Shown: positions 25,213 through 61,262 of the stretch, in pieces
Position numbering within the stretch: position 1 is the stretch's first letter
How the letters are laid out: the number at the start of each line of letters is the position of its first letter
DNA from: Ostreococcus lucimarinus
Lineage: Eukaryota
Reading direction: 5' to 3' (one strand)
Assembly (NCBI GenBank): GCA_000092065.1
Contig: CP000598.1
Length of the DNA stretch: 64,000 bases
Position numbers and translations under genes: made by a program
Notes under the pieces: model-generated
Databases searched by the model: none
What the model was told of the DNA's origin: nothing
The model's input: only the letters and a program-made list of their open reading frames with translations

Positions 25213-25215
25213 TCA

Positions 25216-26753: not shown

Positions 26754-28654
26754 CTTCGACTATGTATCACGAATGCGGATCCTCGCACTTGAGAAACCTC
26801 GGATTTATACGTCGCGATGGGTGTCGTGCGTGAGAAACCTTGGGTTTATAAGTCGCAATAGATGTCGTGCGTGCTTGGCTTGTCTGATGCTGATTCATAC
26901 GCGCTAAGTCTATATGTAGGTCTAGTTCGTGTACAAGTAGTGTAGACATGCACGTCAGCAACAAAAAACTCCGCCGGTGCATTTGGCTTGAAAAAGTTCG
27001 AGCTCTATCACTAGATGCGACCTACCAATGATCACACCGTTCGTGTTCCTCTTAACCAACTTTGCTTGTGTGCTTCTCTGTCGGATATCTTGTCATTCTT
27101 GACCTTCTCGAAATTTGTCTCTATCCAATCCATGATCCACTTGCCCCACTCATGAATATGGCGACTCCAGACGTCGACTTCATTCCAAGATCTGATTTTC
27201 CAGGAAATAATTCTTCATTTACAAAGTTCGAATCACTAAACGCTGCCGGACATATACTCGAGTCCTTCCTGAAGTACAGTTCTACGACTTAAAATGTTCG
27301 TCAAATCAAGATTCGATACAAAGTGCGCAAATTCCGAATCGTCCAGAAGGCTGCGGCATAGATTTGTTTTTGCAACGTAAAAACGGCTTGAAAACTATCG
27401 GCCTTGAGAAATCTCAAGACAATGTCAATGTTGGCACACGTCAGCTCATCGGCGCTCACACACTCACTAAGCGCGATCATGCCGAGTCTGCAAACAGTGT
27501 TGTAAGTCTGGCTATCATATTTGTATTTGCTTACTGCGCTCTTTTCATTTTAAAGAGGATGCCGAAGCGGATTTAAAGTTGGCCACGTTGAGAGGCTCAG
27601 ATAAGAGCATGTATTATTAGCTTGTATTCTTGATAAGCCTTTCCGGATAGAATGCGTGACGAGTTACGACTCAACTGCAACTGTGAACATCAATCGAAAC
27701 TGAAAGTTCAGAAGTTGTGACCGCTCGCTGGAAAATTGACCCACTACCGACGGTGACAGTCGCCGTGGCGAATTGTTTTTGTTTGGGCACTGCGCAGACG
27801 AAATCGAGAATTTTGGCGATATGAGGTGAGGACTATGCGAGGCGGGGGGAGAGTCTACGCGGTCTTGGTCCCAGTGGCATTCCTTCCTAGCCGACTGCGT
27901 CTCTGTAGGAACGTTTCGCCGTCGATGAGCTACACCAGAAGTATCGCGACGGCATATCGCGACGATGGGCGCCGCCGCCTAGGCGCGGGAAGTCTGATCC
28001 CGGCTACGAAAGATATAAGACCCACCCCGCGTTACGAAAGTCTTGATACAGTGTATGGTTTTTCATAGTGCAGTGCAACGAACGTGTCGAATACGATGAC
28101 GCGTGAAATGAAGGGGAAACGACGACCAAACGGGGTTCCACAGCGCGCAGGGTTCGTGCGTATTTCGCGCGCGGCGTCTTGTCGGCGTGCTCATCCATCG
28201 CGACGAAAGTGGGCGAGGCCGATGCACGTTGGCTTTTACACGTTCTGCGCGTCGTTCGCCGATCCGGCGTGGGGACGCGGTTCTCGCGCGCGCGTCGCGC
28301 GTCGCGCGCGCCGCGAAGGCGACGACGACGACGATCGCGCTTCCGAGACCCTCGTCGCGCGTCTCCGCGCGCGTCGCGTCGCGTGCGGTTCGCGCGACGC
28401 GTCGCGCGCGCGCGACTGGGCTCGTTCGGTGCGTTGCGCCGCCGCGGTGCGGTGGCGGCGCGCGCGACCGCGCGGGCGCGCGTTTCAGTGATGGCGTGCG
28501 TGATTGCATAACGCCCGTTTCAGTGATGGCGTGTGTGTCTGTTGCGATGATGGTATATATGGCTCGTTTCGAAGTAAAATATGTATATTAGATCGTATTA
28601 TGATACATTTAAGTCTATCTGTGTGATCCATGGATACATTTTCGTTCGATTGAT

Positions 28655-29641
28655 TTTTTCGGTCGCGAAAGCGCGCGGTCGCCGGGTCAACCAACACCTT
28701 CATCTCCGGGGGGGATCGAAGATTGTTTTTTACGGTCGCGCGCGCGGTCGCCGCGGACGCCCCCGCCCTCGTCGACGCCGCGCTGACTGTCGCGCGCTGA
28801 CTGACGCGCGCTGACTGACGCGCGCGCGATCGAACGCCGCGAGTGGGGAAAGGCGAACGCGCGACGTCGTCGCGCGCGCCCCCGCGCGTCCCGGAGCGAA
28901 CCGCGCGTCGTCGTCGTCGCCGTCGCCGTCGCGCGCGTACGCTTCGGAACGCGAAAATCGTTTTTCGTCGCGGGGGGACTGCGGTGCGGGTCGTCTCACA
29001 CTTCGGGACGCCGACGATGGTGTCGTCCGGCGACGCCGACGTCGACGACGCGGTCGAACGACGCCATCGGCGCGGTCGCGGTCGCGCCGTTCACGATCTT
29101 CTGCCGTCGTCCTCGACGGCGCCAGCGCGCGCAGCGGCAGATCTCGCGGCGATTCAAAAAACCGATACGATCGACGATCGCGCCAACGCGAAACGCGCGC
29201 GAACAGCGACGGCGTCGCCCGACGAGAGTTCCCCTCCCATGATTTCGTTCGACGATATGTTCATCGATGCGCTCGACGGCTTCACGACGTACACCGAGGC
29301 GAAAACGAACACCGTCCCGCCGGTTGAAGCAGCAACCGGTCGAGGCGCGCTCCCGAGGCGGTTTTGCAAGAGCTGTCGGAAAGCGCTCGACGTGTTTCGT
29401 GATTTCGACGGGGAGCTGAAGACGTGTCGACTGTGTTTGCGCGTGCGCAAGAAGGACGCGAAACGCAAACGCGCGCTACGGCGGGCGGACGCGAAAAGGT
29501 CGGGCGACGGCGACGGTAAAAAAGGCGCGGCTTCGTAGAGAAGCTGAACGCAGGGAACGACGACGAGTCGCGGATGCGCGCGAAACGATCGATCTTTGAT
29601 TCGACGCGCCTTCGGTATAGTAGTGTGTTTTGCTCTGTAGC
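28655..29641. repeat. Segment duplicated at 58354-59158. The second copy carries a ~190-bp internal deletion. The segment includes GC-rich low-complexity sequence and a small C-x2-C...C-x2-C ORF.
   Basis: Aligned directly; the two copies are near-identical outside the deletion. Confidence 0.6.
29017..29538 (+). CDS. Hypothetical basic protein with a putative C4 zinc-binding motif (FCKSCRKAL...CRLCL). A duplicated copy is at 58717-59055.
   Basis: The first in-frame ATG is at 29017. The ORF is conserved in both copies, but the context is GC-rich, so the coding status is uncertain. Confidence 0.3.
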   Translation: MVSSGDADVDDAVERRHRRGRGRAVHDLLPSSSTAPARAAADLAAIQKTDTIDDRANAKRARTATASPDESSPPMISFDDMFIDALDGFTTYTEAKTNTVPPVEAATGRGALPRRFCKSCRKALDVFRDFDGELKTCRLCLRVRKKDAKRKRALRRADAKRSGDGDGKKGAAS

Positions 29642-30292
29642 GACACGGCGATTGGGGTCAGGCTCAACGCGCTGGAGTCGGCGAAGACGGCGCTCGAGCA
29701 AGTGGACGTGGACGTGCGCGCGCTCATCGGTGCGCTGAACGCGACGGACACGGTGATGCGCGCGACAAATGCTGAGTTGAAGACACGGTTGGATGCTTTG
29801 AATACCACGGACGTAGAGATGAAAGCCAAAGACACCGAGTTGAGCGGGCGAATTGATGCCTTGAACGCCACGGATACAGAATTGAAGACCGCGGATGCGT
29901 TGCTGGGGAGCAGAATTGATGCCCTGAATACGACAGACGCGGCGTTGAAAGCCGAGGATGCGAATCTGTCGAACAGAATCGACATCCTGAACGCCACCGA
30001 CGCTGTACTGAAGGGCGTGGACGACGGCTTGTCGAGCCGCATCGACGCCCTGACGAACATTTACGTCAACGAGCTCAATCTCACGGACGAGCAGCTCATC
30101 GTCACCGACGCGACGCTTGGCTCGCGCATCGACAGGTTGAACGAGACGCAGTACGAGCTCAAGGGCATGGACGCGGGTTTATCGATTCGAATCGACGCGC
30201 TCGACGACTCGAAAGCCGAGCTGCAGCGCGTGGATACCGAAGTCGCCGCGGTCATAGCGTCTTTGAACACCATGGGTGAGGAGCTCAAGTAG
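29630..30292 (+). pseudogene. Fragment of a 21-aa-repeat (RIDALNATD...) protein gene, paralogous to the gene at 31079-32599 but lying on the opposite strand.
   Basis: It contains only the repeat region, with no signal peptide and no C-terminal domain. It abuts a transposase remnant. Confidence 0.3.
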
Positions 30293-30321
30293 CTATTTTT
30301 TTCGAAAACACGAGTACTACT

Positions 30322-32599: not shown

Positions 32600-32800
32600 G
32601 TCGACGCGAAAGAAGCGCGCCGTGCGCGATCGCGCGGCGTCGAACGCATAGCGGACGTACGACGCGCGCTTCGGCGGCGCGCGCGATGATCAGAGACGTC
32701 GCGCGCTTCGGCGACGCGCGTGCGGGCGCGGTGGCAGGAGCGGAGAAGAACGGCGCCACCGTCCGTCAGATTCGCAAAGACTGCGTACCGTGAACGCACG

Positions 32801-32880
32801 TCGCGATTTCCCGCGCCGCGCGTCGCGCGTCGTCGGGTGCTGTGGACCGACCCCGCGGTTTTGTGCGAAATGAAACGCGA
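32801..32880. repeat. Direct repeat of about 78 bp, recurring at 60352-60431, 27.55 kb away.
   Basis: The sequence gtcgcg(a/g)tttcccgcgccgcgcgtcgcgcgtcgtcgggtgctg...accgaccccgcggttttgtgcgaaatgaaa is near-identical at both sites. The flanks are unrelated. Confidence 0.6.
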
Positions 32881-33252
32881 ATGAAATCGGCGCGGACGTG
32901 ATTCGGATGCGGTGGCGTTACGTTCTGTTCCGATCCGCGTGCGCACGCACTTTTGTCACGTACTCACGCACATTTGTGTGGCATGTGATTACTCATGTGT
33001 GAAAAAAACGTTCCGAACCGTTCCGCACGGTTGTTCGAGGGTCGTCATCGGCGGAGAACGACGACAAAATTAAGGGGTATAAAGATTAGCGAATATGTAA
33101 ATGTAAGGAGTAACCATGGGCTCCAACGTTAATCGCCTCGAAATGCTTTCCGTTATCGATGACTTGCATGAAAAGTATCAACATTTACACCATAAATCGA
33201 AGCTCTAAACCCTAAACATAGTTTTCGTTTTTTTTGCTCAGGTTTCGCCAGG

Positions 33253-33366
33253 CACGTGTCAAAAATTGGCAAATTCTGAAACTCGTTTTTTGCTAGGGTT
33301 TAGCTTTAACGTCTCCGAACGCTCCGACGGGGAGGCGATGACGCCGCCGCCACTCGTCGACGCCTC
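33253..33366 (+). promoter_or_regulatory. Conserved upstream module (copy 1 of 4), containing ctagggtttagc and lying upstream of the giant DUF285 gene.
   Basis: It aligns with 46951-47065, 50010-50176 and 51756-51946. A CCCTAAA x2 interstitial telomere-like motif sits just upstream at 33196-33212. Confidence 0.4.
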
Positions 33367-33838
33367 CGTCCGCGGTCGTTCGCGTCGACATAGTTCAAGT
33401 GGTACCCTTGGACGACGGGCCCACCCGTGCGCACCCACGGGTGGGTGAAGTGCGTTTCCGTGGCGCGCCGTCGCCGTTCGGTCCTTCGCGGGCGACCGTA
33501 GCGCAACCGGGCGATCTCCGTGCGGGCGGCGCGACGCGACGCCGGTGCACGCATCGCAAGGGGCACACGCCGGGGGCACGGCGCCATTCGCGGCGAACGG
33601 TACGCCACCACACACGTTCGCAGCGGCGGACGGCATGCGTGGGCGGGTTGGAGGCAACGTTGTATTGAAAATTGCGTACAGCACTGTTGGGCAGACCGGC
33701 TCGTTGAAGCAGCATACGGATCTACGAGCGAAAGCATTTTCTCCGTCGAATATCATAGGGAAACAGCATGATAGATCAGTTGCACGGTCGAATCACAGTG
33801 CTCGAGCATCCTTCAGTTATCATACGTTGAAGGTGAAA

Positions 33839-36800
33839 ATGATTTTAACACTCGTATCCATCGCTATATCCATGGGAAATACACTTGCGAGTGGTAGCAT
33901 AGCGCTCACCGACGCAACGTTTTCTACTGCGATCGCTAGTTGCCTCGAGGAGGCAGCGTCGGATGGCCTGTGTACTTCTTACGGCTTTGCAAGTGGGTTC
34001 GGAGCGATGCCTGATTGGGACACGGGCAATGTCACGAACATGGGTAGTGCATTTTCGTCTAAATACTACTTCAATGCATCCATCGGGAACTGGAACACGT
34101 CGCGAGTGACGTATATGGGTTCCATGTTTCAGTCTGCGTATTCGTTTAATCAGGACATCGGGAACTGGAACACGTCGCAGGTGACGAACATGTATTCCAT
34201 GTTTCAGTCTGCGAATTCGTTTAATCAGGACATCGGGAACTGGAACACGGCGCGAGTGACGTATATGGGTTCCATGTTTCAGTATGCATCTTCGTTTGAT
34301 CAGGACATCGGGGGCTGGAACACGTCGCAGGTGACGAACATGTATTCCATGTTTCAGTATGCGTCTTCGTTTGATCAGGATATCGGGAACTGGAACACGT
34401 CGCGAGTGACGTATATGTATTCCATGTTTCAGGGCGCATCTGCGTTTGATCAGGACATCGGGGGCTGGAACACGTCGCGAGTGACCAATATGGGTTCCAT
34501 GTTTCAGTATGCATCTTCGTTTGATCAGGACATCACAAACTGGAACACGTCGCGAGTGACCAATATGGGTTCCATGTTTCAGTATGCATCTTCGTTTGAT
34601 CAGGACATCACAAACTGGAACACGGCGCGAGTAACGTACATGACCAACATTTTCCAAAACGCGACGGCGTTTCAGGCGAAATATACATGTTCGACCGTTC
34701 AATCTGGACCCATCGCATCGTGTTCGCAGTGCGTTGCAAACTGTGCCGCTTGTAGTAACACTGCGTCGGGTGTTTGTAGTGTTTGCATGACTGGGTACAC
34801 ATTAGACGGAGGAATGTGTGCGGCACCCGCTGCGGCGCTCACCGACGCAACGTTTTCTACTGCGATCGCTAGTTGCCTCGAGGAGGCAGCGTCGGATGGC
34901 CTGTGTACTTCTTACGGCTTTGCAAGTGGGTTCGGAGCGATGCCTGATTGGGACACGGGCAATGTCACGAACATGGGTAGTGCATTTTCGTCTAAATACT
35001 ACTTCAATGCATCCATCGGGAACTGGAACACGTCGCGAGTGACGTATATGGGTTCCATGTTTCAGTCTGCGTATTCGTTTAATCAGGACATCGGGAACTG
35101 GAACACGTCGCAGGTGACGAACATGTATTCCATGTTTCAGTCTGCGAATTCGTTTAATCAGGACATCGGGAACTGGAACACGGCGCGAGTGACGTATATG
35201 GGTTCCATGTTTCAGTATGCATCTTCGTTTGATCAGGACATCGGGGGCTGGAACACGTCGCAGGTGACGAACATGTATTCCATGTTTCAGTATGCGTCTT
35301 CGTTTGATCAGGATATCGGGAACTGGAACACGTCGCGAGTGACGTATATGTATTCCATGTTTCAGGGCGCATCTGCGTTTGATCAGGACATCGGGGGCTG
35401 GAACACGTCGCGAGTGACCAATATGGGTTCCATGTTTCAGTATGCATCTTCGTTTGATCAGGACATCACAAACTGGAACACGTCGCGAGTGACCAATATG
35501 GGTTCCATGTTTCAGTATGCATCTTCGTTTGATCAGGACATCACAAACTGGAACACGGCGCGAGTAACGTACATGACCAACATTTTCCAAAACGCGACGG
35601 CGTTTCAGGCGAAATATACATGTTCGACCGTTCAATCTGGACCCATCGCATCGTGTCGATCGGGGTCACCATTTCAGAATTCGACCGAGTTGAAGCTTGC
35701 GGTCGACAGCTGTTTACTCGCGGATCCAACAGGAAATTGTGATTGCAGAAGTTCTCTGGTCGACTGCCGGGCGGCGAGCGGCGATTCAATATCGAAATGG
35801 GATACACGCTTCGTAACGAATATGAGCTCCTTGTTTGCAGGATCAGATCAATTTAACGCAGATTTAGGTGCTTGGAACACAAGTGCCGTTACTTCGATGT
35901 CGCACATGTTTCATGGAGCCGCTGCGTTCAACAAAGACATTAGTGGTACGTATAATGCGAATATCTTCGCGTGGGACGTGAGCGGCGTGACGGACATGAC
36001 TCGAATGTTCGAAGGCGCTAATAGTTTCGCTCAGGACATCAGCTCGTGGAACGTGGTGAACGTCGCGAGCATGGACAGTATGTTTTCGGGCGCAAACGCG
36101 TTCAACGCGCCCATCGGCAGTTGGAACACAGACGGCGTGACAAACATGTTTCAGATGTTCCACTCAGCACATGTGTTCGATCAACCAATCGGAAGCTGGA
36201 ACACGGAACGGGTGACGAGCATGCAGTGCATGTTCATGTATGCGCGTGAATTCAATCAGGATATCAGCTCCTGGAACACGGTCAACGTGGTAAATATGTG
36301 GGATATGTTTAATAGTGCGGATGCGTTCAACCAGAACATTGGGTTATGGAACACAGAGGAGGTGACGGATATGAGATACATGTTCTATAACGCGGGTGCG
36401 TTCAACCAGCCCATAGGGTCGTGGAACACCGCCAATGTCACGACCATGCGATCTATGTTTCAGGGCGCATCTGCGTTTAATCAGGACATCGGAAACTGGA
36501 ACACGACTTCTGTCACGGACATGTACAGCATGTTTGGTAGCGCGACGGCGTTCAATCAGAACATCACGGGATGGCACACGCCGAATACTGGTATTACTTG
36601 CGATTCATCGCAAACGGCGTGTGGTGATACAGGGTGTTTTGACATCGGTAATTGTGCTGCTGCGATGTTTTCCGGTGCGACAGCTTGGTTAGCGAGGTAT
36701 GCTCGCATGGATGGGAATGCGTCGAGCACCGATGGACCTCCGTCTCAGTGGGTCGGCCCGACACCATTTTTGAGTCGAGACGCTTTAGTCGCGGCGGTTG

Positions 36801-48181: not shown

Positions 48182-48756
48182 CAACAGTATGGGCAAACAG
48201 TTAGGCGTTCTCCATGGCCTCCATTCGCGCGACCAGAGCGTTGACGCGCTCTTCGAGTTCGTCGATGCGGCGTTGTTTAGCGTCGTTCGCGCTCTCTACA
48301 TCGGCGCGACATAGAATAACGATAATCTATATCTGCTATATCTGCTTAATATTCTGCTTAAGATTTCGGCACCCTCGCTTAAGATCTCTTCAGAATGGAA
48401 TCTCTGAATGCAAGGCGTGGATGTACATTAAACCATGAACGGACCACGGTTCGATTTTTTTTATTACAAGTGTAGGTCTACTTTTACGTTTGGTGGACTC
48501 CGCTTGAGTCGGCCGATGTCACCGTGTCAGGTGTTCAGAGTGCACTAGAGACGTGACCGCCGATACACAGGGCGTCGAGCTCGGCGTGCCTGATTTCACG
48601 ACTCGGCGACCATGATTTGAAACCGAAATGACCATCGGCTTCAGGCCCAGGCGCGGCCGCAATGCTACTTTAAACTTAATATTTTTTTTTTGAAAAAAGA
48701 GTACTATAGTACTTTTGGTGTTTAAACGTGTTCGTGATATGATTGATAGTCCGTGA

Positions 48757-49407: not shown

Positions 49408-50009
49408 CTTTGGCGTGGGTTTATCTCGCAAAAGGATTTCAGCGAGGCTTGAGGTGCGCCGCAAAGTGAGGCCCGGAGATCCGGGGATCCTCCGCAGCCC
49501 CGCGGGCGTGTGCCTGGCGTGTGCCCTTCGCGGTCGGTCGGACGAGGGGCCCGTTGGCGCCCCGCGGGTTTGTGTGCCAGCCCCAGGGTTTAGGGGTTAG
49601 GATCGGACATATGGAACCTCACTAATTAGCCGCATGACCTCATACATTAAGTTATTTATATCTAGTCATCGCGCGAAATGGCGTGGGTAAATTACCGTAC
49701 TAGGGTTTCCGTAAATAAAATACGTACCGAAAATAATGAATTAATTTACACGGGCGTGCCACGACGTCGTCGCACGCGCTCGTGAAAATTTGGTTGACGG
49801 CTTGGATTCGAGATTTTGGGGAGGTAAAATTCGGCCAAATCCCGCGCATATATTACTGTACAGTAATCAAAGCGCGGGATGTGGCCAAAGTCTTTGGGTC
49901 ACAGCCCCTCACTTTGGGGGCTGCAGTGACGGGATGTGGGAATTTTACCGTATGGGTCGTGACTCGTCGTTGGGGGTACTACTATGAAATCCCATAATTC
50001 TATTGTACA

Positions 50010-50176
50010 TAGGGTTTAGAAATTAGGGTTTAGACGTCAAAAATCGCTCGGGTTCCATCAGAAACGTGTCAAAAACGGGCCTTTTCTGAAACTCGATTTT
50101 TGCTAGGGTTTAGCGCCCCCGGTTTTCCGAGGATGCGGGCAGAGCTCGCCGTCGGAGCCACTCGTCGCCGCACACG
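50010..50176 (+). promoter_or_regulatory. Conserved upstream module (copy 3 of 4), including tagggtttagaaattagggtttagac.
   Basis: It aligns with the other three copies and ends at the ATG at 50177. Confidence 0.45.
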
Positions 50177-51220
50177 ATGACCGATTCAGTCGCGCACGCC
50201 TCACCGACATGGAGAACGTACTCATTAAACCCGTCGCTGCAACCGGACTGGATGAACGGCACGGCGGAGGTAGAGGCGGTCAAAACAGCGGAGGATGATC
50301 TCGAGCGCTCGTACAAGAACAAGCCGTTCTTCAAGGACGCAAGCTACGAGGCATTCGCCAGACAACGAGACGAGTATGACAAACCGACGCCCGACGGCCT
50401 CGAGGAGTTCAAGCGCATCTTACGGTCGAATTATCTTCGCACCGTAGAGCGCATCGATAAAAATATCCAAGTTCTGGAAGCCCAGCTACAAGACGAGAAT
50501 ATCTCTGAAACGCGACGGTCGGTTATCCCGCAGCACATCGAGGACACTCGTGCGAAATTAAAAGAGCAAGACAATTCATTGAACGCGCTGTGCGCCGATG
50601 TGGATGCGGTTATCGCAGATTTGAAAGGCTTGCCCGATAAAATTGCCGACATTAAAGAGCGCGCCTCTGAACAACTTCAGCGACACAAAAGAAAAAGGAC
50701 TAATGCATCTTTGGAACGCAACCTCGAGGAGTTGAGCGATGCGTTGCGCAGCTACGAGGCGAAAAAAGAACAGGAGAGGCTCACCCTTTGTGAACACCAA
50801 ATTCGCCAACAGAATCTGCCATTGTCCCAGTATGTTCGCTACTCAGGGGGAGGAGTTATCGACGTTGTTCATCCTGTGGGTGTCATCGGCTGCGATGGTA
50901 GTAACCTCAGCGTTGATGGTCGTGGTGGTCGTGGTGGTCGTGGTGGTCGTGGTGGTCGTGGTGATCGTGTTCTTTCGGTTAATCGTCAACGTTACTTTGA
51001 AGTGCCACAATGGCGGCCTGAATGGGGACCTGAGAAGCAATTTTGTGCGTGCAAGAGCTTCCAAGAATGGTACAAAGTCGACGCCGGAGACCTTCTTTAC
51101 AGCGCGCTTCGTGGCGTAGAGGGCGCGCTAAAGGCGCTCAGTGGTTCGGGAGATGACACCTCTTCGCTTCGACGGCGCTTGGGCGATGCCAATTTGGACG
51201 AGGCAAGCACAGGGAGTTAA
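50177..51220 (+). CDS. Hypothetical coiled-coil protein, family member B (347 aa), with a (RGG)5 tract encoded by a (ggtcgtggt)n microsatellite.
   Basis: The ATG was verified. It is paralogous to the gene at 47066. Confidence 0.55.
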   Translation: MTDSVAHASPTWRTYSLNPSLQPDWMNGTAEVEAVKTAEDDLERSYKNKPFFKDASYEAFARQRDEYDKPTPDGLEEFKRILRSNYLRTVERIDKNIQVLEAQLQDENISETRRSVIPQHIEDTRAKLKEQDNSLNALCADVDAVIADLKGLPDKIADIKERASEQLQRHKRKRTNASLERNLEELSDALRSYEAKKEQERLTLCEHQIRQQNLPLSQYVRYSGGGVIDVVHPVGVIGCDGSNLSVDGRGGRGGRGGRGGRGDRVLSVNRQRYFEVPQWRPEWGPEKQFCACKSFQEWYKVDAGDLLYSALRGVEGALKALSGSGDDTSSLRRRLGDANLDEASTGS

Positions 51221-51755
51221 TATATGTGGACGTATATTTTGTTGTCCACGAATGGCGCGATATAGAATAACGATATCTAGCCGCTCTCCACCGCCTCCAG
51301 TCTCGACACAATGTCACTGAGCTCACTGCGGAGTTCGTCGATTTGCTGATCTCTCGATGCAACGGCGGCCTCTAAATCGGCGATTTGAGCGTCGTGCTGT
51401 TGCTGTATGCGGTCAACTTCCTGTAATGCTGCGGTTGAGAGCGTTGAAATTGCCGATTCTTGGAGGTGCTTGAAATCGGTAACAACCTCACCGTAGACGA
51501 ACAATCCGCGCCGCGCGCGCGCCAGTCCGGTGCGGGGTCGACCGAACTAGCCGTTGGTCGTAGTTTCCGACCGTTTGAATTTGAATTCGCTGCGCGCGCG
51601 GCGCTTGAAGACGACCGTTGGGGCCCAACGAGCATGTAAATCTTTGAGGCAGTTTTCGCCGCGCATGACGCGACGTGGTGTGCGTCGGAGTACGTCTCCG
51701 GCCGTCTCGACGGCGCGGAAAGGTTGCAAGAAGTCTCCTCGACGCATTACATTAA

Positions 51756-51946
51756 ATCTAGGGTTTAGAAATTAGGGTTTAGACATCAAAAATCGCCGAG
51801 GTTCCATCAGAAAGTTGTCAAAAACGTGGCTTTTCTAAAACTCGATTTTTACTAGGGTTTAGCGACCTCCGGTTTTTCGGCGGAGGAATTGCGTGCGGGC
51901 AGATCTCGTCGTTGTCGCCACTCGTCGACGCGGCGATGCTCTCAAC
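51756..51946 (+). promoter_or_regulatory. Conserved upstream module (copy 4 of 4).
   Basis: It aligns with the other copies. Confidence 0.45.
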
Positions 51947-53832
51947 ATGGCAAAGGTGAAGATAATGCTAATATTGTCGATGGTGTTGATACTGCGCATG
52001 CCGAGCGCACTCGCAGGCGCACTCACACACGCACTCCTCCGTGTGGGTGGTCCACGTGTAAGGCAAGCTGTCGAAAAAGGGATGAAACAAGGCATTATGG
52101 ATTCGTTTCCAGGAGGCGTCCAGGACCTCCTCGCATACTTGCACCGCCACAGAGAGGACGAAATCAAACAGGAGTTTGGGTGCATGGCGCTCATGATCAT
52201 GTGCCGGGAAAACACTGAGAACAGACGCATCGCCGGAGAGCAGGGCGCGATCCAGGCCGTCGTGAACGCCTTGAACCGCCACAGAGAGAACAAGGAAGTG
52301 CAGAGGGACGGACACATGGCGCTCGTGATCATGTGCGAGGACAACACCGAGAACAGACGCATCGCCGGAGAGCAGGGCGCGATCCAGGCCGTCGTGGACG
52401 CCTTGAACCGCCACAGAGGGAACAGGGAAGTGCAGAGGGACGGACAACTGGCGCTCGCGATCATGTGCAAGGACAACACTGAGAACAGACGCATCGCCGG
52501 AGAGCAGGGCGCGATCCAGACCGTCGTGGACGCCTTGAACCGCCACAGAGGGAACAGGGAAGTGCAGAGGGACGGACAACTGGCGCTCGCGATCATGTGC
52601 AAGGACAACACTGAGAACAGACGCATCGCCGGAGAGCAGGGCGCGATCCAGACCGTCGTGGACGCCTTGAACCGCCACAGAGGGAACAAGGAAGTCCAGG
52701 CGAACGGGCACATGGCGCTCGCGAGCATGTGCATTAACAACACTGAGAACAGACGCATCGTAGACGCGTATGGGCAAACAGTTAGTTATTCTCCACAGCC
52801 TCCATTCGCGCGACCAGAGCGTTGAAGGACAGCGGGCGCAGTGATGATGCGCAAATAAACGCACTGTACGCGATTGCAAACGAGATGGCGCACGCTGTGA
52901 ACATGATCTCGATTCAAGGTGTCGCTGAAGGCCCGGGCGTTGAAGAACGAGTAAAACACACACAAGATTTCCTACAGCAACTTTTGTCGGACGTCGACAT
53001 CAAACTTGAGATCGAAGAAAAGCAAAACGCCGAGGCTCTGCGTGTGGTATTGCGAGTGCACGCGTATGGTCGTGCCATGAAAATTATCGAGGATCACATG
53101 CTAGAATATGCGCGCGCTGAACAAGTGGAGGAGCTGGCCGTGCTCGGACAAGAATCTGCGGCACTGTTAGAAGAACAAAACCTCCTTTCCATGGGTTTTG
53201 GCGTCAAGGAGCTGAATATGTCGATACTGGCAATCGACGCGGAGCATTTCACTGTGCACCTAGAGAAAGCTACTTCCCTGGACGAAGTCGGCAGTGCTGT
53301 GGCCATTCTCAACGCCGTCAATTCCATTGCAGTCCGTCATCTCGAGTGGAGAGATGCGAGCGTTGCAACTTTTAGCCACCTTGAAACCGAAGAGTCCATT
53401 GGTATTGAAGTCAAAATCAACAGGGACGTACTATATTCTGCTGCGATGCTTCTGAAAGATCACGAATCCCAGCTGAACCAAGAACTGGCGAGGCGCGCGC
53501 GCGAATGGAAGCTTCTGTTTAAGAATTTTGGAAAAGTGAAATTCAACCAGACGCTTGAAGAAATGGTTCAGGTGGAGCTCACCTCGCCTGAAGGCGCGGA
53601 CGCTGATTTAACACGCCGTGCTAAAAAATTTGTGGATTGGTGCGTGGAATCTTCACAGCAGCTGAGCCGAGGGGAGTTTAACCAGCGTCTTCCTGGGATT
53701 ACGGAAACGGCATATATCAGCCTAAAATCCCTCGCACAGAAGTCTGCCAGTTCGCTCGTTAAGATCGCACAAAAAACAGCTGCATCGAGGCGTAGCAAAA
53801 CAAAGACGTCAATATTCGGGTTTGCGCGCTAA
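51947..53832 (+). CDS. Armadillo-repeat protein (five or six 42-aa ARM units, three near-identical) joined to a C-terminal domain homologous to the cytoplasmic tail of the giant DUF285 protein. The two reading frames are broken near 52768-52825, either by a 50-nt intron (52768-52817, GT..AG) or by a frameshift.
   Basis: The ARM units read ENRRIAGEQGAIQAVVDALNRHRGNREVQRDGQLALAIMCKDNT. The downstream ORF has NALYAIANEMAHAV...LRVHAYG, matching [15 protein letters not shown]...MKVHAFD in the giant protein. Confidence 0.45.
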
Positions 53833-54161
53833 ATCCGCCAACCGAACGCCAGAATTGTTATGTTACGCTCGATGATAACATGGTTGGGTTGGGGCAAATG
53901 CCCACAAATCAGCGTCAGGCGAAGGAAGACAGGTGCGTCTGCAAATTCCAAATTCTCGGCAGAACAAGTTCGTCGACTGGAAGAGCTCGGCCGGTTTGGA
54001 GACAAACCCGCCATATTGGAAGAGCACTTCGCTGCCTGAGGGTACAGAAGATGTAGCTAATCAGAAGCGTGCGACCGTTAAGACCTTGGGGATTCGACTC
54101 GCTTAAGATTTCGGCACCCTCGCTTAAGATTTCTCCAGAACGAATCGTGTGAGTGAAGTGG

Positions 54162-54659
54162 TCAAGCCAAGCCACGCAACTCATCTACCGTAAATTGATA
54201 CTTGTCGAGACTGCGCTTCGAAGGCAGCGTGCCGCGCGCTCGAGCATTCTTGAGGCACGTCTTACGCAGTATTCTTTTCGCTTGCTGCTTGTAATAACTG
54301 AGTTGTCTGTAGTTACCATCGCCGCCGACCCGCTTCGGCGTATATTGAGCTCTGCTGTAGGCCGGACTCCCGTCCACGTTCTCGTGGCACGCGTGTTTCT
54401 GGCTGCGTCCAGCAACTCGGGAGTTGAATAAGCCGTCGCGCTTCTCTCTCATGTAGGCACTTTTACGTTGATGGAGCTCTCCAGCTGGAATGTCCTTTTC
54501 GAGAACTCTCACGTCCGCGTCGCCAAACTTGAAGATTGGATGTCGTGCGTATTTATGCGAGGCAAGGCGCGCTCTGAGCGAACCTGTCGTCGATCCGATG
54601 TACGTCTTGTTACATTTCGCATTATCGCTAAACATTTCGTACACGCATCCCGACGGCAT
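54162..54659 (-). CDS. GIY-YIG nuclease, copy B.
   Basis: Near-identical to copy A; the ATG was verified. Confidence 0.7.
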   Translation of the reverse strand: MPSGCVYEMFSDNAKCNKTYIGSTTGSLRARLASHKYARHPIFKFGDADVRVLEKDIPAGELHQRKSAYMREKRDGLFNSRVAGRSQKHACHENVDGSPAYSRAQYTPKRVGGDGNYRQLSYYKQQAKRILRKTCLKNARARGTLPSKRSLDKYQFTVDELRGLA

Positions 54660-55092
54660 TTGTCCTGATTACCTATCCATCCCTAAGAAAATATTGTTGC
54701 CAAAAGTGCTCCTCCTGTGGTTTGCAGTCACATTCGAGAGACCATAGGTACTCGTGTCGCTGCGTGGGGTGCAAGGTCCGGGGTGTAGATATCGAACCGC
54801 CTGATTTCACACCTGGACGTTCGTGATCCGACGAGACCTGACGAAATGACGAACTTGTTTTGTCGTCCCCAAATTCGTCAGCCCGTCGTTCGGTCACACT
54901 TTGTGTGTACCAATGATGAAAATGACGAAATGTTAAAATATTTTAATGTTTATTTTTATTTTAGATCTATGACAAGCAACAGTGTAGACCTTTATGAAAA
55001 CAGTTCGTCATTCGTCATTTCGTCAGGATCCAAACCATGGTCTTTTCGGTGTCTTGTTGAGTCTTCATATTGCAAATGTACGAATCACAAAA

Positions 55093-55611
55093 TTAGTATG
55101 AACACCAGACGACCGCCGGCGCGAGCTCCGTCTCCCCCGTGTACCCATTGTTCTTCAGCCACTCGAAGCACCCGTCGCGGTCAATTTCCCAATAGACGCC
55201 CTTCTCGTCCCTACCTTGCCTCAGGTGGTCCTCTTCCATTGGGATCCTGTGGCCCTTTTCCTTCTTGAAGAAGTCCTTGAGCTTATTGCCGACCTTCGTC
55301 GCGCTATCTTGGCCACGCGCAGCCGCTGGCAACCACGCCTGGTATTCGATGAAGATGTCACTGTTGCGGATTTTATTTCCAACCCACTTCTCAGGGAATT
55401 CAACAGTGACGCAATGCTCAAACCATCGAGTGAACTTGGGCATGCATCCACGCTTCATTTCCGAATACGCGTCGGTCGTAGGTCTCGTGCGCTCCACATG
55501 ATAACCGGTACGGAGAAGTTTATATTTATTAATTAAAGACTCGCGCGTGTTGGCGCTAAATGATTTTATTGCTGCCGAGAGACTCAAGTTTGGCCGTCGT
55601 TTGAGTCGCAT
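55093..55611 (-). CDS. Hypothetical 172-aa protein, copy B.
   Basis: Identical organisation to copy A. Confidence 0.45.
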   Translation of the reverse strand: MRLKRRPNLSLSAAIKSFSANTRESLINKYKLLRTGYHVERTRPTTDAYSEMKRGCMPKFTRWFEHCVTVEFPEKWVGNKIRNSDIFIEYQAWLPAAARGQDSATKVGNKLKDFFKKEKGHRIPMEEDHLRQGRDEKGVYWEIDRDGCFEWLKNNGYTGETELAPAVVWCSY

Positions 55612-55688
55612 CGATGGGTCGCGCCCGCCGATATAACGCCGGCGTTTCGGACACGATCTTGAAAACAAGCACTGGTTGACTTGATTGA

Positions 55689-58220
55689 TTAGGAAACCTT
55701 ATCCGTGCCTTTTACGCTGAGCCCGGTCATGGACGGCTTCGTCGGCATGGTGAACGCGGTGTAGTCCGCCGCCGTGGGCACCGTGATGCTCGTGTCGTAC
55801 GACATCCCGGAGCACGCCGACGCATCGGCGGGAGCAAGCATTTCGACACCACTTTCGAGTTTCAAGACGTACCGGTCGCCAGTCGATGGTTGTTTGAACG
55901 TGGTGCCATCGGGGATCAGGACATCCGGACGGCGATGGTAACCATTGTTGTCGTCGCACTCCTCGTTGCCATACTGGTCGACCTCGGGCGCCGCGCGCGA
56001 ACCAGTCATCGGATTGAAGCAAATGAACGGCGCGTCGCCCAACCAACCGCCTTCGTAACGCACGTTGAGATTCACCCCGGAGTAGTCGGTACCGGATGGA
56101 GAGCGCAGCAACACGGCGTCCGTGGGTATCTTGCCTTGAAGCTGGAGAGGCGCATCCATGAACTTCTTTGACGCGGAGTCCGAAGGATCTTCGAGCCACG
56201 CCATGCCCTCCCAATTGCTTGAGCTCCACTCGTAGTGCACATCCAATTTGTTGGGTTCCTCGCAAACGTCGGTAGTGGCGGTGCAACTCAAAGTGTCGAG
56301 GTTCGCAGGTGTAGCTTCGAAGAGAACCATATGAACTTCTCCCGAGTCAAAGAATGAGTTGGTTGGGTCCATTACGACTTCAGCGCCGAGGGTGCCGGAA
56401 ACGTCTTCCTTCAACGAGCCGGTATCTTTGTCGAAGACGTACTTTTTATAAGTGCTTCGAGCGTCGTTGTATCCGTTCGGCGAGCCGTAGAACTGGCTGT
56501 CGTGACTGCTCGCACTCGATAGCTTCGTCTGGTCGATACACCGCTCGCCGCACGTGAGTGCGAGGTGGCTGCTGAGCGACCCAGGGGGGACGGTTTGCGC
56601 GTCAGACACTTTGAAGTGCGTCAGGTTAAGCAAACTCGCAGAGCCTCGGCCGAAGATGCTTCCCCAGCAGCGTATGATTTGGTTGTCAATGTCAGCCATC
56701 GTGAGCGCACGCGGAGTCGTGATTGAGTTCGTGTTCAGCGATCCACCGTTCCAAGTTCGCTTCGACGACAACACGAGTGCGTTCGCGTCGGAGTCATACC
56801 TGAACTTGACCTCAACTTCTGCAGCGTTAGTGTCATCCCAGAACCAGCCTGTGATCGTCGCCCCTTGGTAGTCGCTTGCGCTTCGCACCGTCGCCGTGAA
56901 CTTGTACAACACCCCGCGTGAGACTTTGAGCCTCTTGTTCACGTTCAGTATCGGATCATCCCAATCGACAATTTCCTCTACTACGTTCCCGTCGGTGAAC
57001 GCGGTTTGAGCGATAGTCTTCTCGGCGGTACTGAGCGCGGTGTCGGAAATGTAGTCGTAATCGGAAATGTAGAGATTGCCCGGATAGTGCAGATCAGCAT
57101 TATACGTCTTGCCGTCGCTGCCTGTAGCCTGAAGATGCACGTAGCTTTGAAGGTTCACCTTCGCCCCGTTGCTGTCGTACGCGCCGTAGCGCTCACCGAA
57201 GAACGATCTGTTCTCGAGTTCATCGCAGAATGACTGCCCGTACGCCTTCGTCTTGACGAGCGTAGCGGTAGTCACCAATTGACCCGCTTGTGTCGAACCA
57301 TTATCAAAGTCGATGGTCTGGAAAGAGGCCTTCGTGATGTCGTTTTCTGCGCGCGATTTAGCACCCGCGGTGAATGAATTGCTGCCTCGTGTCACCTCTT
57401 CCCACCACGTGACCCCGGTCGCCGTGCAATCCGAATCCGCGTCGGTGGTTTCGCACTCGCGACGAACCACACCTTTGATGCGTTGGGACGCGGTCGAGCC
57501 AGTCGGCGATTGGTACGTAAAGGTAAAGTTTTTCACCAAGATTTTGTCAGACTTGATGGCGACGTCATCGCGCTTGACGATCATTTCCGTGTCGATGTTC
57601 GGCATTTCTGGGGTATCGCTGAGGGCTACCCAGACGTTCGTCTTGAAATCACGGGTATCGCTCGCGTCGTCGATGTCTGGGCCCGTGGCGTTGACGACCC
57701 AACGGTACGTAACCTTACCCTTGATTCGGTCGCCGTCGCTGTTGTCACAGTGGAAAGGATCGATCTCAGCGATGTATGGGCCAGTGTTCAGGTTCGCCGT
57801 CCAGTTCACCGAGGCGACGTAGCAAAGAACCATGTTTGGTATCTGGAAAATTTCGGTACTTACAGCGTCGACGAACGTCTCCGCCGGCGGCGCCGTGGCG
57901 TAGTCGGACGTCGAAGAGAACGAAGACACTTCGAGAGGCGTCACCTCGACGAGCGAACGACCATCGATTCGAGACGAACCAGAAGACGTCGTCGAAACAC
58001 CCTCTGACGGGATCATGGTGACTTTACGCGGCGTCAACGCCGCCTTGAGCGCGTTCGTCTTCGCCGCGCCCGACAGCCCGCTGACGGTGGTCGGGGTCGG
58101 GGCCGGGGCCGGGGCCGGGGTCGCGTCGTCATCCCTGAGCCCGATGCCGAGGCCGGTGCCAAGGGCGACCACCACGGCGGCGACACCAACGATCGCGATC
58201 GCAACGCCACGTCTCACCAT
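55689..58220 (-). CDS. The same ~843-aa membrane-anchored protein, copy B.
   Basis: Identical apart from an extra APAP encoded by one more GGGGCC unit. Confidence 0.55.
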   Translation of the reverse strand: MVRRGVAIAIVGVAAVVVALGTGLGIGLRDDDATPAPAPAPTPTTVSGLSGAAKTNALKAALTPRKVTMIPSEGVSTTSSGSSRIDGRSLVEVTPLEVSSFSSTSDYATAPPAETFVDAVSTEIFQIPNMVLCYVASVNWTANLNTGPYIAEIDPFHCDNSDGDRIKGKVTYRWVVNATGPDIDDASDTRDFKTNVWVALSDTPEMPNIDTEMIVKRDDVAIKSDKILVKNFTFTYQSPTGSTASQRIKGVVRRECETTDADSDCTATGVTWWEEVTRGSNSFTAGAKSRAENDITKASFQTIDFDNGSTQAGQLVTTATLVKTKAYGQSFCDELENRSFFGERYGAYDSNGAKVNLQSYVHLQATGSDGKTYNADLHYPGNLYISDYDYISDTALSTAEKTIAQTAFTDGNVVEEIVDWDDPILNVNKRLKVSRGVLYKFTATVRSASDYQGATITGWFWDDTNAAEVEVKFRYDSDANALVLSSKRTWNGGSLNTNSITTPRALTMADIDNQIIRCWGSIFGRGSASLLNLTHFKVSDAQTVPPGSLSSHLALTCGERCIDQTKLSSASSHDSQFYGSPNGYNDARSTYKKYVFDKDTGSLKEDVSGTLGAEVVMDPTNSFFDSGEVHMVLFEATPANLDTLSCTATTDVCEEPNKLDVHYEWSSSNWEGMAWLEDPSDSASKKFMDAPLQLQGKIPTDAVLLRSPSGTDYSGVNLNVRYEGGWLGDAPFICFNPMTGSRAAPEVDQYGNEECDDNNGYHRRPDVLIPDGTTFKQPSTGDRYVLKLESGVEMLAPADASACSGMSYDTSITVPTAADYTAFTMPTKPSMTGLSVKGTDKVS

Positions 58221-59354
58221 CGTCGCGCGTTGAAATGCGGCGACGACAAGTGGCGACGGTGACGCGATCTGCCCGCACGCAATTCAATTCCTTCGGGTCA
58301 CCTTATCTTTTGGAGCCCCGGAGATGCGACTGTTTACCAATACGATGGTTCCCTTTTTTCGGTCGCGAAAGCGCGCGGTCGCCGGGTCAACCAACACCTT
58401 CATCTCCGGGGGGGATCGGAGATTGTTTTTTACGGTCGCGCGCGCGGTCGCCGCGGACGCCCCCGCCCTCGTCGACGCCGCGCTGACTGTCGCGCGCTGA
58501 CTGACACGCGCTGACCGACGCGCGCGCGATCGAACGCCGCGAGTGGGGAAAGGCGAACGCGCGACGTCGTCGCGCGCGCCCCCGCGCGTCCCGGACCGAA
58601 CCGCGCGTCGTCGTCGTCGCCGTCGCCGTCGCGCGCGTACGCTTCGGACCGCGAAAATCGTTTTTCGTCGCGGGGGGACTGCGGTGCGGGTCGTCTCACA
58701 CTTCGGGACGCCGACGATGGTGTCGTCCGGCGACGCCGACGTCGACGACGCGGTCGAACGACGCCATCGGCGCGGTCGCGGTCGCGCCGTTCGCGATCTT
58801 CTGCCGTCGTCCTCGGCGGCGCGCGCGAACACCGTCCCGCCGTTTGAAGCAACCGGTCGAGGCGCGCTCCCGAGGTGGTTTTGCAAGAGCTGTCGGAAAG
58901 CGCTCGACGTGTTTCGTGATTTCGACGGGGAGCTGAAGACGTGTCGACTGTGTTTGCGCGCGCGCAAGAAAGACGCGAAACGCAAACGCGCGCTACGGCG
59001 GGCGGACGCGAAAAGGTCGGGCGACGGCGACGGTAAAAAAGGCGCGGCTTCGTAGAGAAGCCGAACGCAGGGAACGACGACGAGTCGCGGATGCGCGCGA
59101 AACGATCGATCTTTGATTCGACACGCCTTCGGTATAGTAGTGTGTTTTGCTCTGTAGCCTCGCGTGTTGTAACTACCGTTGTACATTTACATCAATGCGT
59201 CGTCGCGTTCGCGGCGATTTTACGTCGTCGTTCGTTCGCGACGCTTCGTTGGACATGGCGCTTCGACACAGAAGAATCCGACGCGCGCACAGTCCGTGGT
59301 GTCGCGCGCACGTCATCGCACACGTCTCATTTCTTATTTCTCCGCTCCAACTCG

Positions 59355-59980: not shown

Positions 59981-60351
59981 CGCCGTGTGAGGTGCACTGT
60001 TTCCCCTTGATCTCCGCCGCGCTCGCTCCCGCCGCGCGCGCGTGTCCAGACCCACGGCGTACGCGAGACGGCGCGTCGTCGCCGCGCTCGTCGGCTTCCA
60101 CGCGTTCGGGAACCTGACGTGTTTGGGTAACCCACGAACGGCGCGCGCGGCGAGCGCCTCCAGGCGCGCGCGCCGCGCGGGAACTCTTCACCGTGCGCGC
60201 GTTTCCACTCGGCGAACACGCCGAGGGCGAGCGCGACTACGCGTCGACGGTGCGTTCCGCGAGTTCGCACCCGCGCCGGCGACGCCTGATCGTCTCGGCG
60301 CGCGATCGTCGCGGCATGGGACGCGTTGGAGGGCGGGGGTCGGGACGCGTC

Positions 60352-60431
60352 GCGGTTTCCCGCGCCGCGCGTCGCGCGTCGTCGGGTGCTGCGGGGACCG
60401 ACCCCGCGGTTTTGTGCGAAATGAAATCGTT
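60352..60431. repeat. Second copy of the ~78-bp direct repeat.
   Basis: See 32801-32880. Confidence 0.6.
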
Positions 60432-61262
60432 CGTCTAACCGTACTGCTGCGAGTAGTCTCGGTCGTTCAAGTAAAGGTGGCGCGCCCAGTGCTGGTCGGC
60501 CGGAAACACCACGCGCGAGGGGAGGGGCGGCTGAAAATTCGGTTTCTGAGGTATTCTCGAGCGCGTGGTTGTCCCTCCCGAGCGCGCGTTTCGCCGTGGA
60601 ATCGTCCTTCGTCGAGTGCTCGTCGAAGCGTGACTCACCGTCGTCCGCTGACGTGGCGTCACGAGTCGATACGCGATTTCGCGGGTCACTCTCCCCGATT
60701 CGTGAACCGCCAAACGTAAATTAATATCTTTGCGCGCGAAAAAAGATCTTTTGACAGCTGTCAAAAAGCCGTTCGAATGCGCGAACGCTCGAATGGCGCC
60801 GCGCCAGCAGTTCGCCGCGCGCGCGACGAGGCGACGAGTCGATCGACCCGATTCATTGATTTCCAAACATCTTTGATTCGCGATAAAACGCTCGCTCGCT
60901 CGCTCGCTCGCGCCATGAGTGAACCTACGGAAACGAAAACGGCGGACCCGTTGAATTGGAAGAATGAGGAAAACGTCAAGCGCTTCGTTCGACCGAGTCG
61001 CTGGTTGTCTCTCGATATCGCGGGCTACCCGGTGCGTGACACATTTCTGTCGATCGAATTTCGCTCGCGCGTCCTGCGCGAAGCGCGCGCGTAGGACGCG
61101 TTTGGGTCGAATGCACCGCGGCCCGATTTTCGAAATTATTTCGCGCGCGATGACACCTTCGTCACGAGTATCGTCGCTTCTGGCGACGTGCGCGCGCAAA
61201 GACAACGAACTGGCAAATACAAAATCCATCATCGACTGACTCGCGAATCCCGCGCGACGTAG

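Follow-up and report, generated by a model that had tools for sequence, protein, structure and literature searches.

Mamiellales algae all possess a small outlier chromosome (SOC), an accessory chromosome that is low in GC and rich in orphan genes. It is known as a hypervariable accessory chromosome (PMC5082852, PMC3491373, PMC5498103), its published behaviour includes internal duplications, translocations, strain-specific DNA and a link to virus resistance (PMC5498103, PMC5082852, PMC13390643), and its role in resistance to prasinoviruses comes from experiments in Ostreococcus tauri and Ostreococcus mediterraneus (PMC5082852, PMC13390643). In Ostreococcus lucimarinus the SOC is chromosome 18, with a length of 149-150 kb, 53% GC and, depending on the count, 78-97 published open reading frames (ORFs) (PMC5082852, PMC3491373). 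Here we analyse 64,000 nucleotides of O. lucimarinus DNA (contig CP000598.1), referred to at full length as the window, with emphasis on the interval 28500-60440, which an original prediction made from the sequence alone had described as a subtelomeric or otherwise rapidly evolving accessory region with nested segmental duplications, surface-protein families and interstitial telomere-like motifs. Our results make it very probable that the stretch is the repeat-rich interior of the O. lucimarinus CCE9901 chromosome 18 SOC and that it was built by nested duplication, with modules and cassettes as putative drivers of its variation. The flagged interval, which the original prediction described correctly under a wrong name, belongs to a kind of region that is already known and adds little to the published picture of the SOC.

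The same kind of chromosome has been described in the sister species O. tauri, where the SOC (chromosome 19) is called the 'viral immunity chromosome' (PMC5082852, PMC5498103). The likeness covers low GC, gene content (sugar and glycosyltransferase genes, genes for methyltransferases and for DUF285-type 'cell surface repeat' proteins, orphans and transposon genes) and architecture (large duplicated blocks, tandem repeats, strain-specific DNA and fragments of a viral helicase gene). Nevertheless, the SOCs of the two species have almost no orthology (11%; PMC5082852) and, whereas the duplications in the window are direct and 0.1-4 kb in size, O. tauri has a region of ~180 kb made of long inverted repeats. 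The hypervariable islands of Prochlorococcus (PMC3491373) are similar to the SOC in their paucity of orthologues, horizontal transfer, sugar-modifying enzymes, methyltransferases, membrane proteins and virus resistance. Those islands, however, are prokaryotic and lie within one chromosome, whereas the SOC is a separate eukaryotic chromosome. Nested segmental duplications, gene conversion, surface-protein families, transposons, telomere-like sequences and strain variation also characterize the subtelomeres of yeasts, Plasmodium and trypanosomes. In contrast to these, no telomere array adjoins the region analysed here, the telomere-like sequences are single boxes embedded in promoters, and the properties are those of an entire small chromosome. 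Finally, the hyperplastic regions of T4-type phages carry mobile regulatory cassettes (promoter-stem-loop repeats) around variable orphan genes, and the present locus resembles them in that orphans are framed by short repeats with hairpin and promoter, and in that junctions coincide with repeats. It differs from them in being part of a eukaryotic nuclear chromosome with elements of 65-200 bp that include a telobox, and in that shuffling is deduced from just two coincident breakpoints.

By exact-sequence protein look-up, six proteins of the window, and one more in a further look-up, are identical to O. lucimarinus CCE9901 chromosome 18 proteins from the 149,386-bp record; the matches include XP_001422291, XP_001422295, XP_001422298, XP_001422320, XP_001422333 and XP_001422338. 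A bacterial origin of the DNA was discarded in view of these eukaryotic proteins and of a Ty1/copia element in the window. At about 54%, the GC content of the window is close to the 53% of chromosome 18 and below the >59% published for Ostreococcus genomes overall (PMC3491373). The first 17 kb are occupied by a cluster of sugar-modifying genes encoding a DegT aminotransferase-epimerase fusion, dehydratases, a GT61-like protein, a CAP59 mannosyltransferase, a nucleotide-sugar transporter and a methyltransferase, while Methyltransf_21 and GT17 genes are found directly past the window on the overlapping metagenome contig L031. The ORFs are long and unspliced, and most genes at 28-60 kb are without a Pfam match. 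The window thus unites location on the outlier chromosome, lowered GC, enrichment in sugar, glycosyltransferase, methyltransferase and orphan genes and, as described below, structural variation between strains. No protein record matching the exact 366-residue methyltransferase was found, and tRNA and Rfam scans of the window returned nothing.

Self-comparison of the window with BLAST revealed repeats over 47.9% of 28500-60440 compared with 3.6% of 1-28499, and five Markov shuffles of the window gave zero non-self matches. Every repeat listed in the original prediction was recovered close to where it had been placed (Table 1). Block B, predicted at 28655-29641 and 58354-59158, consists of two parts, 28654-29122 matching 58354-58822 (98.5% identity) and 29306-29641 matching 58826-59158 (97.3%), with a 183-bp indel between them. 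The predicted 4.2-kb cassette is a direct duplication with 98.8% identity over 4230 alignment columns. The 3' flanks of the giant gene and of the gene with ARM repeats, likewise proposed to be paralogous, are the two copies of module H (78% identity), and the protein from the ORF at 52822-53832 is 31% identical to the C-terminal part of the giant protein (39650-40492). What had been called a ~310-bp repeat, here element D, extends over 338 columns at 93.5% identity; the upstream modules exist as four full and two leader-only copies, and the ALNATD-repeat gene and its fragment share ~41% amino-acid identity. The palindrome repeat (46663-46782) has a related copy at 49830-49889; its 60-nt arms are 88% complementary and joined without a spacer, its fold reaches -50.9 kcal/mol (z = -14), and it is present at 17 module-bearing metagenome loci. 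Additional repeats had escaped the original prediction, namely an 822-bp duplication of 100% identity within the giant gene (33902-34723 and 34835-35656), a tandem array of 4.4 units of 132 bp in the ARM gene (52183-52760), and the 79-bp repeat I with 95% identity between its copies.

Table 1. Coordinates of the features discussed in the text, in window positions
Feature	Position	Strand	Remarks
Ty1/copia long terminal repeat (LTR) retrotransposon, intact	21024..26751	-	RVT_2, integrase, LTRs, target-site duplication; outside the flagged interval
Block B, copy 1	28654..29641	+	left member of the direct-repeat pair B/B' around the region
ALNATD-repeat gene fragment	29630..30292	+	related to the 506-residue protein gene
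ALNAT(D/N)-repeat protein gene, 506 residues	31079..32599	-	PPSPPP linker, Cys-rich C-terminal domain
79-bp repeat I, copy 1	32799..32875	+	partner at 60348-60426
Telobox promoter/leader module, copy 1	33193..33373	+	before giant gene; nhmmer E = 2e-46
Giant DUF285/PARCEL repeat protein gene	33635..41368	+	2577 residues from first ATG
3' module H, copy 1	41537..41696	+	3' of giant gene; pairs with 53949-54112
~335-bp 3' element D, copy 1	41684..42020	+	pairs with copy 2
Cassette, copy 1	42191..46406	-	GIY-YIG, helicase stump, 841-residue protein gene, leader
GIY-YIG nuclease gene, cassette copy 1, 165 residues	42228-42725	-	
PrimPol-SF3 helicase stump, copy 1, 191-residue ORF	43151-43726	-	homology to intact gene up to ~43543-43549
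Membrane-protein gene, copy 1, 841 residues	43747-46272	-	
52-nt shared leader, copy 1	46285-46336	-	
Bidirectional intergenic middle	46421..46782	+	two ~85-bp repeat units, then 120-nt palindrome
Telobox module, copy 2	46881 to ~47065-47075	+	before 371-residue protein gene
Telobox module copy 2, then 371-residue coiled-coil protein gene (47066-48181)	46881..48181	+	
3' element D, copy 2	48376..48703	+	pairs with copy 1
Small Cys-rich membrane protein gene, 216 residues from ATG	48757..49464	-	signal-like N-terminus, one predicted membrane segment
Second bidirectional intergenic region and 347-residue protein gene	49481..51220	+	~85-bp unit, palindrome 49830-49889, module copy 3
Telobox module, copy 3	49997-50176	+	before 347-residue protein gene
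347-residue protein gene	50177-51220	+	paralogue of 371-residue protein gene
Telobox module, copy 4	51746-51944	+	before ARM gene
Telobox module copy 4, ARM-repeat ORF (51947-52825), 336-residue ORF (52822-53832)	51746..53832	+	
3' module H, copy 2	53949..54112	+	3' of ARM-gene region
Cassette, copy 2	54125..58353	-	pairs with copy 1
GIY-YIG gene, cassette copy 2	54162-54659	-	
Helicase stump, copy 2	55093-55668	-	
Membrane-protein gene, copy 2, 843 residues	55689-58220	-	
Leader, copy 2	58233-58284	-	
Block B', copy 2	58354..59158	+	abuts edge of cassette copy 2 directly
79-bp repeat I, copy 2	60348..60426	+	wild contig L031 breaks within this copy

The giant protein is built of tandem DUF285 repeats (Pfam E = 0, 13 stretches), as is characteristic of PARCEL proteins, and its gene also carries arrays of a 75-bp repeat; XP_001422294 has been listed as the single PARCEL ORF on chromosome 18 (PMC2996958). 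Within block B copy 1, a 231-residue Arg-rich ORF (28843-29538) shows a weak match to an SBP-like zinc finger in its Cys-rich C-terminus. The expectation that genes of the interval encode large secreted or membrane proteins holds for a part of them. An N-terminal membrane anchor is present in the 841/843-residue proteins, the N-terminus of the ARM protein is hydrophobic, and the 216/235-residue protein combines a signal-like N-terminus with a predicted membrane segment and 21 Cys residues. In contrast, the paralogous 371- and 347-residue proteins are devoid of a hydrophobic segment, and in each cassette pair three ORFs belong to the selfish element. The last 4 nt of the ARM-repeat ORF are shared with the 336-residue ORF, which is read in another frame and is annotated as 'partial' in GenBank (ABP00615/XP_001422298). 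Relatives of 1131-1367 residues in the corresponding clusters suggest that 51947-53832 is one larger gene split by a frameshift or an intron. One member of the 90% cluster of the 336-residue ORF (P0315, P0299 clusters) is labelled as coming from an Acidimicrobiaceae metagenome-assembled genome, and an ENA contig of 104 Mb includes a fragment of a PrimPol-helicase; both probably represent Ostreococcus DNA contaminating other assemblies.

Each cassette joins a membrane-protein gene to the remnant of a selfish element, and no description of this make-up or of the shared modules was found in the literature searched. The 841/843-residue protein, in which a Pro/Thr linker accompanies the membrane anchor, lacks any Pfam domain. 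Its close relatives make up a narrow family of 16 clusters (>=49% identity), and a profile search retrieved 155 representative clusters, mostly of 750-970-residue proteins without known domains. An AlphaFold model of the 841-residue protein (43747-46272), confident (pLDDT 82.9) only when a 78-sequence alignment was supplied, is abundant in long beta-hairpins and had no significant neighbour among solved or viral structures, and this predicted fold may be undescribed. A relative with 49% identity is encoded among housekeeping genes (TFIID subunit, BCCIP, RimM, Cu-ATPase and SNARE) of an Ostreococcus-like genome, at 10001-12508 of L032, a 401-kb JGI contig, and on L033. A standard chromosome thus carries a paralogue or ancestor of the SOC gene.

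The helicase stump of the cassettes corresponds to residues 602-733 only of a 733-residue PrimPol and SF3-helicase protein, an intact primase-polymerase and helicase gene being absent from the cassettes of the window. Intact 733-residue PrimPol and DUF5906 genes occur in wild contigs L036, L122 and L123 (DUF5906 E = 1.8e-14; relatives with PF09250), where the GIY-YIG gene is located 425 bp downstream of the helicase, with the same spacing as in the cassettes. Among GIY-YIG relatives, 8 of 12 match PF01541 (best E = 4.7e-8); both window copies miss the E = 0.01 cut-off themselves and are 58-95% identical to matching members. The 165-residue protein reads 'GCVYEMF...KTYIGST...R..L..H', so that the family motif with its conserved Arg and His is present together with the profile of its relatives, and on these grounds it is a member of the GIY-YIG nuclease family with predicted activity. 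Because Pfam and PHROGs scans of the window cassette ORFs gave no direct match, the identities of both the nuclease and the helicase rest on relatives; a sequence-profile search of the PDB with the GIY-YIG family returned nothing useful. The protein clusters of the helicase (601) and the nuclease (898), compared with 84 for the 841-residue protein, indicate that the element is probably multi-copy. Further, in another strain (L122, 395-12596) an intact PrimPol-helicase gene and its GIY-YIG partner are oriented tail-to-tail with another giant surface-protein gene (>4236 residues; TIG, F5/8-C and G8 domains), which is followed by an H/D-like 3' module, the same arrangement as beside the DUF285 giant gene of the window. 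A 753-residue primase of Bathycoccus was considered as an equivalent of the Ostreococcus 733-residue protein and discarded, since similarity was undetectable.

The divergence between the two cassettes is very unevenly distributed. They differ in 50 alignment columns, and 30 of the 33 substitutions fall within the first 586 bp, the GIY-YIG segment (P = 7e-23), whereas the remaining 3.6 kb are 99.9% identical and the 841- and 843-residue ORFs differ solely by a 6-bp indel (synonymous divergence, dS = 0). Any two copies of the GIY-YIG segment, whether from wild or reference sequence, are 94-98% identical, and this segment has either been exchanged with other copies of the element or is fast-evolving. 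Leftward, identity drops to 78% in module H and, at the protein level, to 31% where the giant and ARM genes share their C-terminal domain. Such a gradient is consistent with an old paralogy on which a duplication or gene conversion of the cargo gene was recently superimposed.

The genes of the interval are framed by shared sequences on both sides. At the 3' side, module H is also found behind other genes in L023, L024, L062 and L083; element D follows a 2136-residue protein gene in L067 and is missing from the equivalent place beside cassette copy 2. At the 5' side, four plus-strand genes (giant, 371-residue, 347-residue and ARM) have the same 180-200-bp block, which ends at the start codon, and the last 52 nt of this module also precede both 841/843-residue protein genes on the minus strand. 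The core of the module, TCTRAAACTC..TTTT..CTAGGGTTTAGC, is located at 33275-33304, 46977-47006, 50085-50114 and 51834-51863. A single scan of metagenome contigs with the 30-nt core yielded 79 loci (L037-L115), whose longest downstream ORFs represent ~33 gene families, including an LHC-type protein, an ankyrin protein, a TPR-rhomboid and many orphans. The distance from the element to the ATG has a median of 93 nt over 69 loci, and only ~65 bp, nearly invariant, are conserved across 38 non-redundant contexts. Several of the loci have 58-66% GC and ordinary neighbour genes, and for this reason the initial idea of a SOC-specific module had to be rejected.

The plant telobox (AAACCCTA) is a promoter element that is situated close 5' of start codons and functions in either orientation. 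The same AAACCCTA motif, ~1.3 telomere units in length, is found here close upstream of start codons, in a host whose telomere unit is TTTAGGG; in contrast to plants, however, it is embedded in a block of ~65 bp that hardly varies among dozens of loci. The block is conserved far beyond the need of a binding site, on low-GC and high-GC contigs alike. In the literature searched nothing was found that links teloboxes to Ostreococcus. It may be that the ~65-bp block is a mobile promoter and that the genes behind it form a co-regulated set. The Myb gene beside the window was considered as the telobox binder and dismissed, as its product is of the SHAQKYF class and not a telobox-type Myb.

The original prediction had called for a comparison of strains, and wild contigs indeed differ in gene content, tandem copy number and size of the giant gene. 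While the sugar-gene cluster is nearly invariant (99.8%), the junction between the giant gene and the cassette is kept in L023 and L025-L028 with other genes past 46509. It is also kept in L024, where the cassette is followed by 5.2 kb of unrelated sequence and then by a B-type block and the 59.6-60.1-kb flank, without any of the genes of 46.4-54.1 kb. The giant protein has 3063 residues in L023 compared with 2577 in the window, and in L017 (1-2951) a ~660-bp unit present once in the window (16462-17123) is repeated 4-5 times in tandem. This unit contains a GC-rich microsatellite and can be likened to the 'accordion' repeats of the O. mediterraneus SOC. Metagenome assemblies break around the cassette and around the 371-residue protein gene. 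Two independent junctions, the duplication boundary at 46406 and the synteny break of L024 at ~46397, lie <=10 bp apart just 5' of the leader, and this coincidence supports module-guided recombination without proving it.

A gene of the 841 family was also found outside Ostreococcus. The 1.05-Mb chromosome-scale sequence OZ116900.1 of Bathycoccus prasinos (locus L034; GCA_964199455.1) encodes a member of the cluster that is 84% identical to the 841-residue protein, and the ORF, together with ~50 nt upstream and 47 nt downstream, has ~90% nucleotide identity to the window gene. Synonymous divergence between the two is 0.15 (dN/dS 0.54), compared with dS = 2.3 against the 49%-identity relative of L032. 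GC at third codon positions is 0.71 in the L034 gene vs. 0.37-0.63 in its neighbours, and the left-flank genes are found exactly in at least four B. prasinos assemblies, the 841-family gene itself in a single accession. A unit of ~2.9 kb at L034 ~9711/9807-12696 (OZ116900.1 ~359-362 kb) corresponds to window 43700-46322 and 55642-58270. Wild contigs L116-L121 are 94-96% identical to this unit and continue beyond it in a common flank that matches Ostreococcus-SOC-like contigs. They could not be accepted as confirmation of the Bathycoccus junction, since only the ~2.9-kb unit is common and the outer flanks are Ostreococcus-SOC-like; judged by these flanks, they look like the donor context. The simplest reading of the sequence comparisons suggests a recent transfer of the 841-family gene between genera, and it rests on one assembly.

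Cumulatively, these observations can be accommodated in a single scheme. An old paralogy joins the giant and ARM genes through C-terminal domain, module H and cassette, and a much younger event left 3.6 kb of both cassettes nearly identical; B/B' and I/I' are border direct repeats, with tandem growth within the repeat-protein genes. The genes are framed at the 5' side by palindrome, ~65-bp telobox core and 52-nt leader and at the 3' side by H and D, rearrangement junctions fall at module edges, and each cassette ties a membrane-protein gene to the stump of the probably multi-copy PrimPol-helicase/GIY-YIG element. Modules and cassettes would then provide the homology for unequal crossing-over and gene conversion, such recombination, seeded in part by the selfish element, would keep producing variants in copy number and gene content, and variation in surface and glycan genes may be selected by prasinovirus attack, in analogy to O. 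tauri and O. mediterraneus. The structural part of this mechanism is supported by the present data, while its functional part is borrowed by analogy from the sister species (PMC5082852, PMC5498103, PMC13390643). Several points weigh against the scheme. The putative antiviral role is taken from other Ostreococcus species, and the proposed recombination at modules is deduced from coincident breakpoints. The telobox element also precedes ordinary genes on high-GC contigs and gives no specific account of SOC behaviour. The right end of the chromosome could be as near as ~13 kb to the flagged stretch. Finally, the copy-2-specific junctions (54112/54125 and 58353/58354) are absent from wild contigs, and cassette copy 2 could thus be strain-specific or, in principle, an assembly duplication. 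We consider it rather unlikely, though deserving of mention, that the SOC is more generally an exchange platform on which surface-protein genes travel as units of leader, ORF and 3' module together with the PrimPol-helicase/GIY-YIG element, are copied by module-guided recombination and occasionally cross genera.

That the interval is a true subtelomere, with duplications generated by exchange between chromosome ends and telomere repeats left by end-healing or fusion, appears very improbable, even though motifs of the O. lucimarinus telomere unit, TTTAGGG (PMC2794166), are over-represented. (TTTAGGG)2 with <=3 mismatches has 16 matches in the window vs. 1.6 expected, TAGGGTTTAG occurs 9 times exactly, and AGGGTTTAG has 10 occurrences vs. 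0.36 expected, all between 33205 and 51854. The interstitial telomere-like motifs of the original prediction are therefore present and enriched, but they are tiny: single or doubled boxes in the promoter module, and three ~20-nt stretches of three degenerate units (46459-46479, 46607-46627 and 49582-49602) within the ~85-bp repeat of the same intergenic regions. A scan of the 64 kb for eight repeat types found no telomere array, and indeed no site with at least two perfect units. Further, the motifs lie within the promoter element at a fixed distance, ~60-110 nt, 5' of start codons, and recur in this position at ~79 unlinked metagenome loci, some beside housekeeping genes, from which we infer that they probably serve in promoters and do not mark former chromosome ends. 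SOCs of O. mediterraneus are known to lose and regain ends (PMC13390643), yet at this locus the chromosome runs on in both directions through ordinary SOC genes. Contig L001 matches window 1-15457 at 99.8% identity and extends 5.7 kb further left, the contig having 16 kb more, and L031 is 100% identical to 60397-64000 and then runs 9.5 kb more rightward through Myb, DNA-methylase, methyltransferase and GT17 genes. The flagged stretch is accordingly at least 34 kb (probably 44 kb) from the end on one side and at least 13 kb from any end; nearness to the right end of the 149-kb chromosome is bounded rather than excluded. In the literature the sugar-gene cluster, transposon and orphans typify the SOC as a whole. 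With no telomere array and with the chromosome continuing on both sides, the data do not support the subtelomere label. The alternative offered by the original prediction, a rapidly evolving accessory region, fits the location on the SOC and the differing genes past the cassette in wild contigs.

The shared modules around orphan genes would also be expected if much of 33-59 kb were a decayed integrated virus- or plasmid-like element with a viral-style common promoter, its duplications coming from element replication or repeated insertion. Genes for PrimPol-SF3 helicases and GIY-YIG nucleases typify selfish DNA and are here multi-copy and highly polymorphic, the 841-residue protein gene has seemingly moved into Bathycoccus, and short stretches from the end of a prasinovirus helicase gene are present in the O. 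tauri SOC (PMC5498103). We nevertheless regard this origin as improbable, given that no capsid, packaging, integrase or polymerase B gene was found, that all that is left of the helicase in each cassette is a 132-residue stump, and that a viral-contig collection searched with the 165-, 841- and 733-residue proteins yielded no relatives. In addition, the promoter element stands before LHC, rhomboid and other cellular genes, and the GC content equals that of the rest of the SOC. Even less credit, and the least of all, is due to the notion that the 2007 Sanger assembly created the large duplications artificially by wrongly resolving a collapsed or mis-joined repeat. The absence of copy-2 junctions from every wild contig and the fact that metagenome assemblies always break around the cassette would be consistent with such an error. 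However, the copies differ at 50 positions, which concentrate in a single segment, and their flanks differ at either side, separate GenBank annotations exist for the 841- and the 843-residue protein, the copy-1 junctions were found again in several independent metagenomes, and SOC duplications have been confirmed by long reads in the sister species (PMC5498103).

Outside the flagged interval, the window contains an intact Ty1/copia retrotransposon with 173-bp TG...CA LTRs of 100% identity, a 5-bp target-site duplication (CACTT), and open gag-like (392-residue) and pol (1310-residue) ORFs, the element thus comprising LTRs, gag, integrase and RVT_2 reverse transcriptase at ~45% GC. It is part of the same repeat-rich compartment as the flagged interval. 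The element lies inside a low-GC stretch at 18-28 kb, and its insertion is apparently very recent. A 77-bp inverted repeat (2552-2628 and 27750-27826; 84% identity) with 25 kb between its arms encloses the sugar-gene cluster and the transposon. At the right border, 63845-64000 and on into L031 3449-8870, genes for the SHAQKYF-class Myb protein and then for a 778-residue C5 DNA methylase fused to CXXC and Tudor domains were found, and a BCCT transporter gene adjoins the left side of the Myb gene near 63845.

Returning to the reading of the stretch as SOC interior built by nested duplication, three details go beyond the literature found, namely the chimeric cassette, the framing of genes by modules and the putative crossing into Bathycoccus. 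The main duplicated unit, in which a membrane-protein gene is combined with a truncated selfish element, would represent a concrete source of both breaks and homology for SOC rearrangement, and the shared 5' and 3' modules with breakpoints at their edges suggest how gene content may be shuffled. If true, the transfer to Bathycoccus would mean that virus-exposed surface genes are common to the most abundant marine picoalgae.

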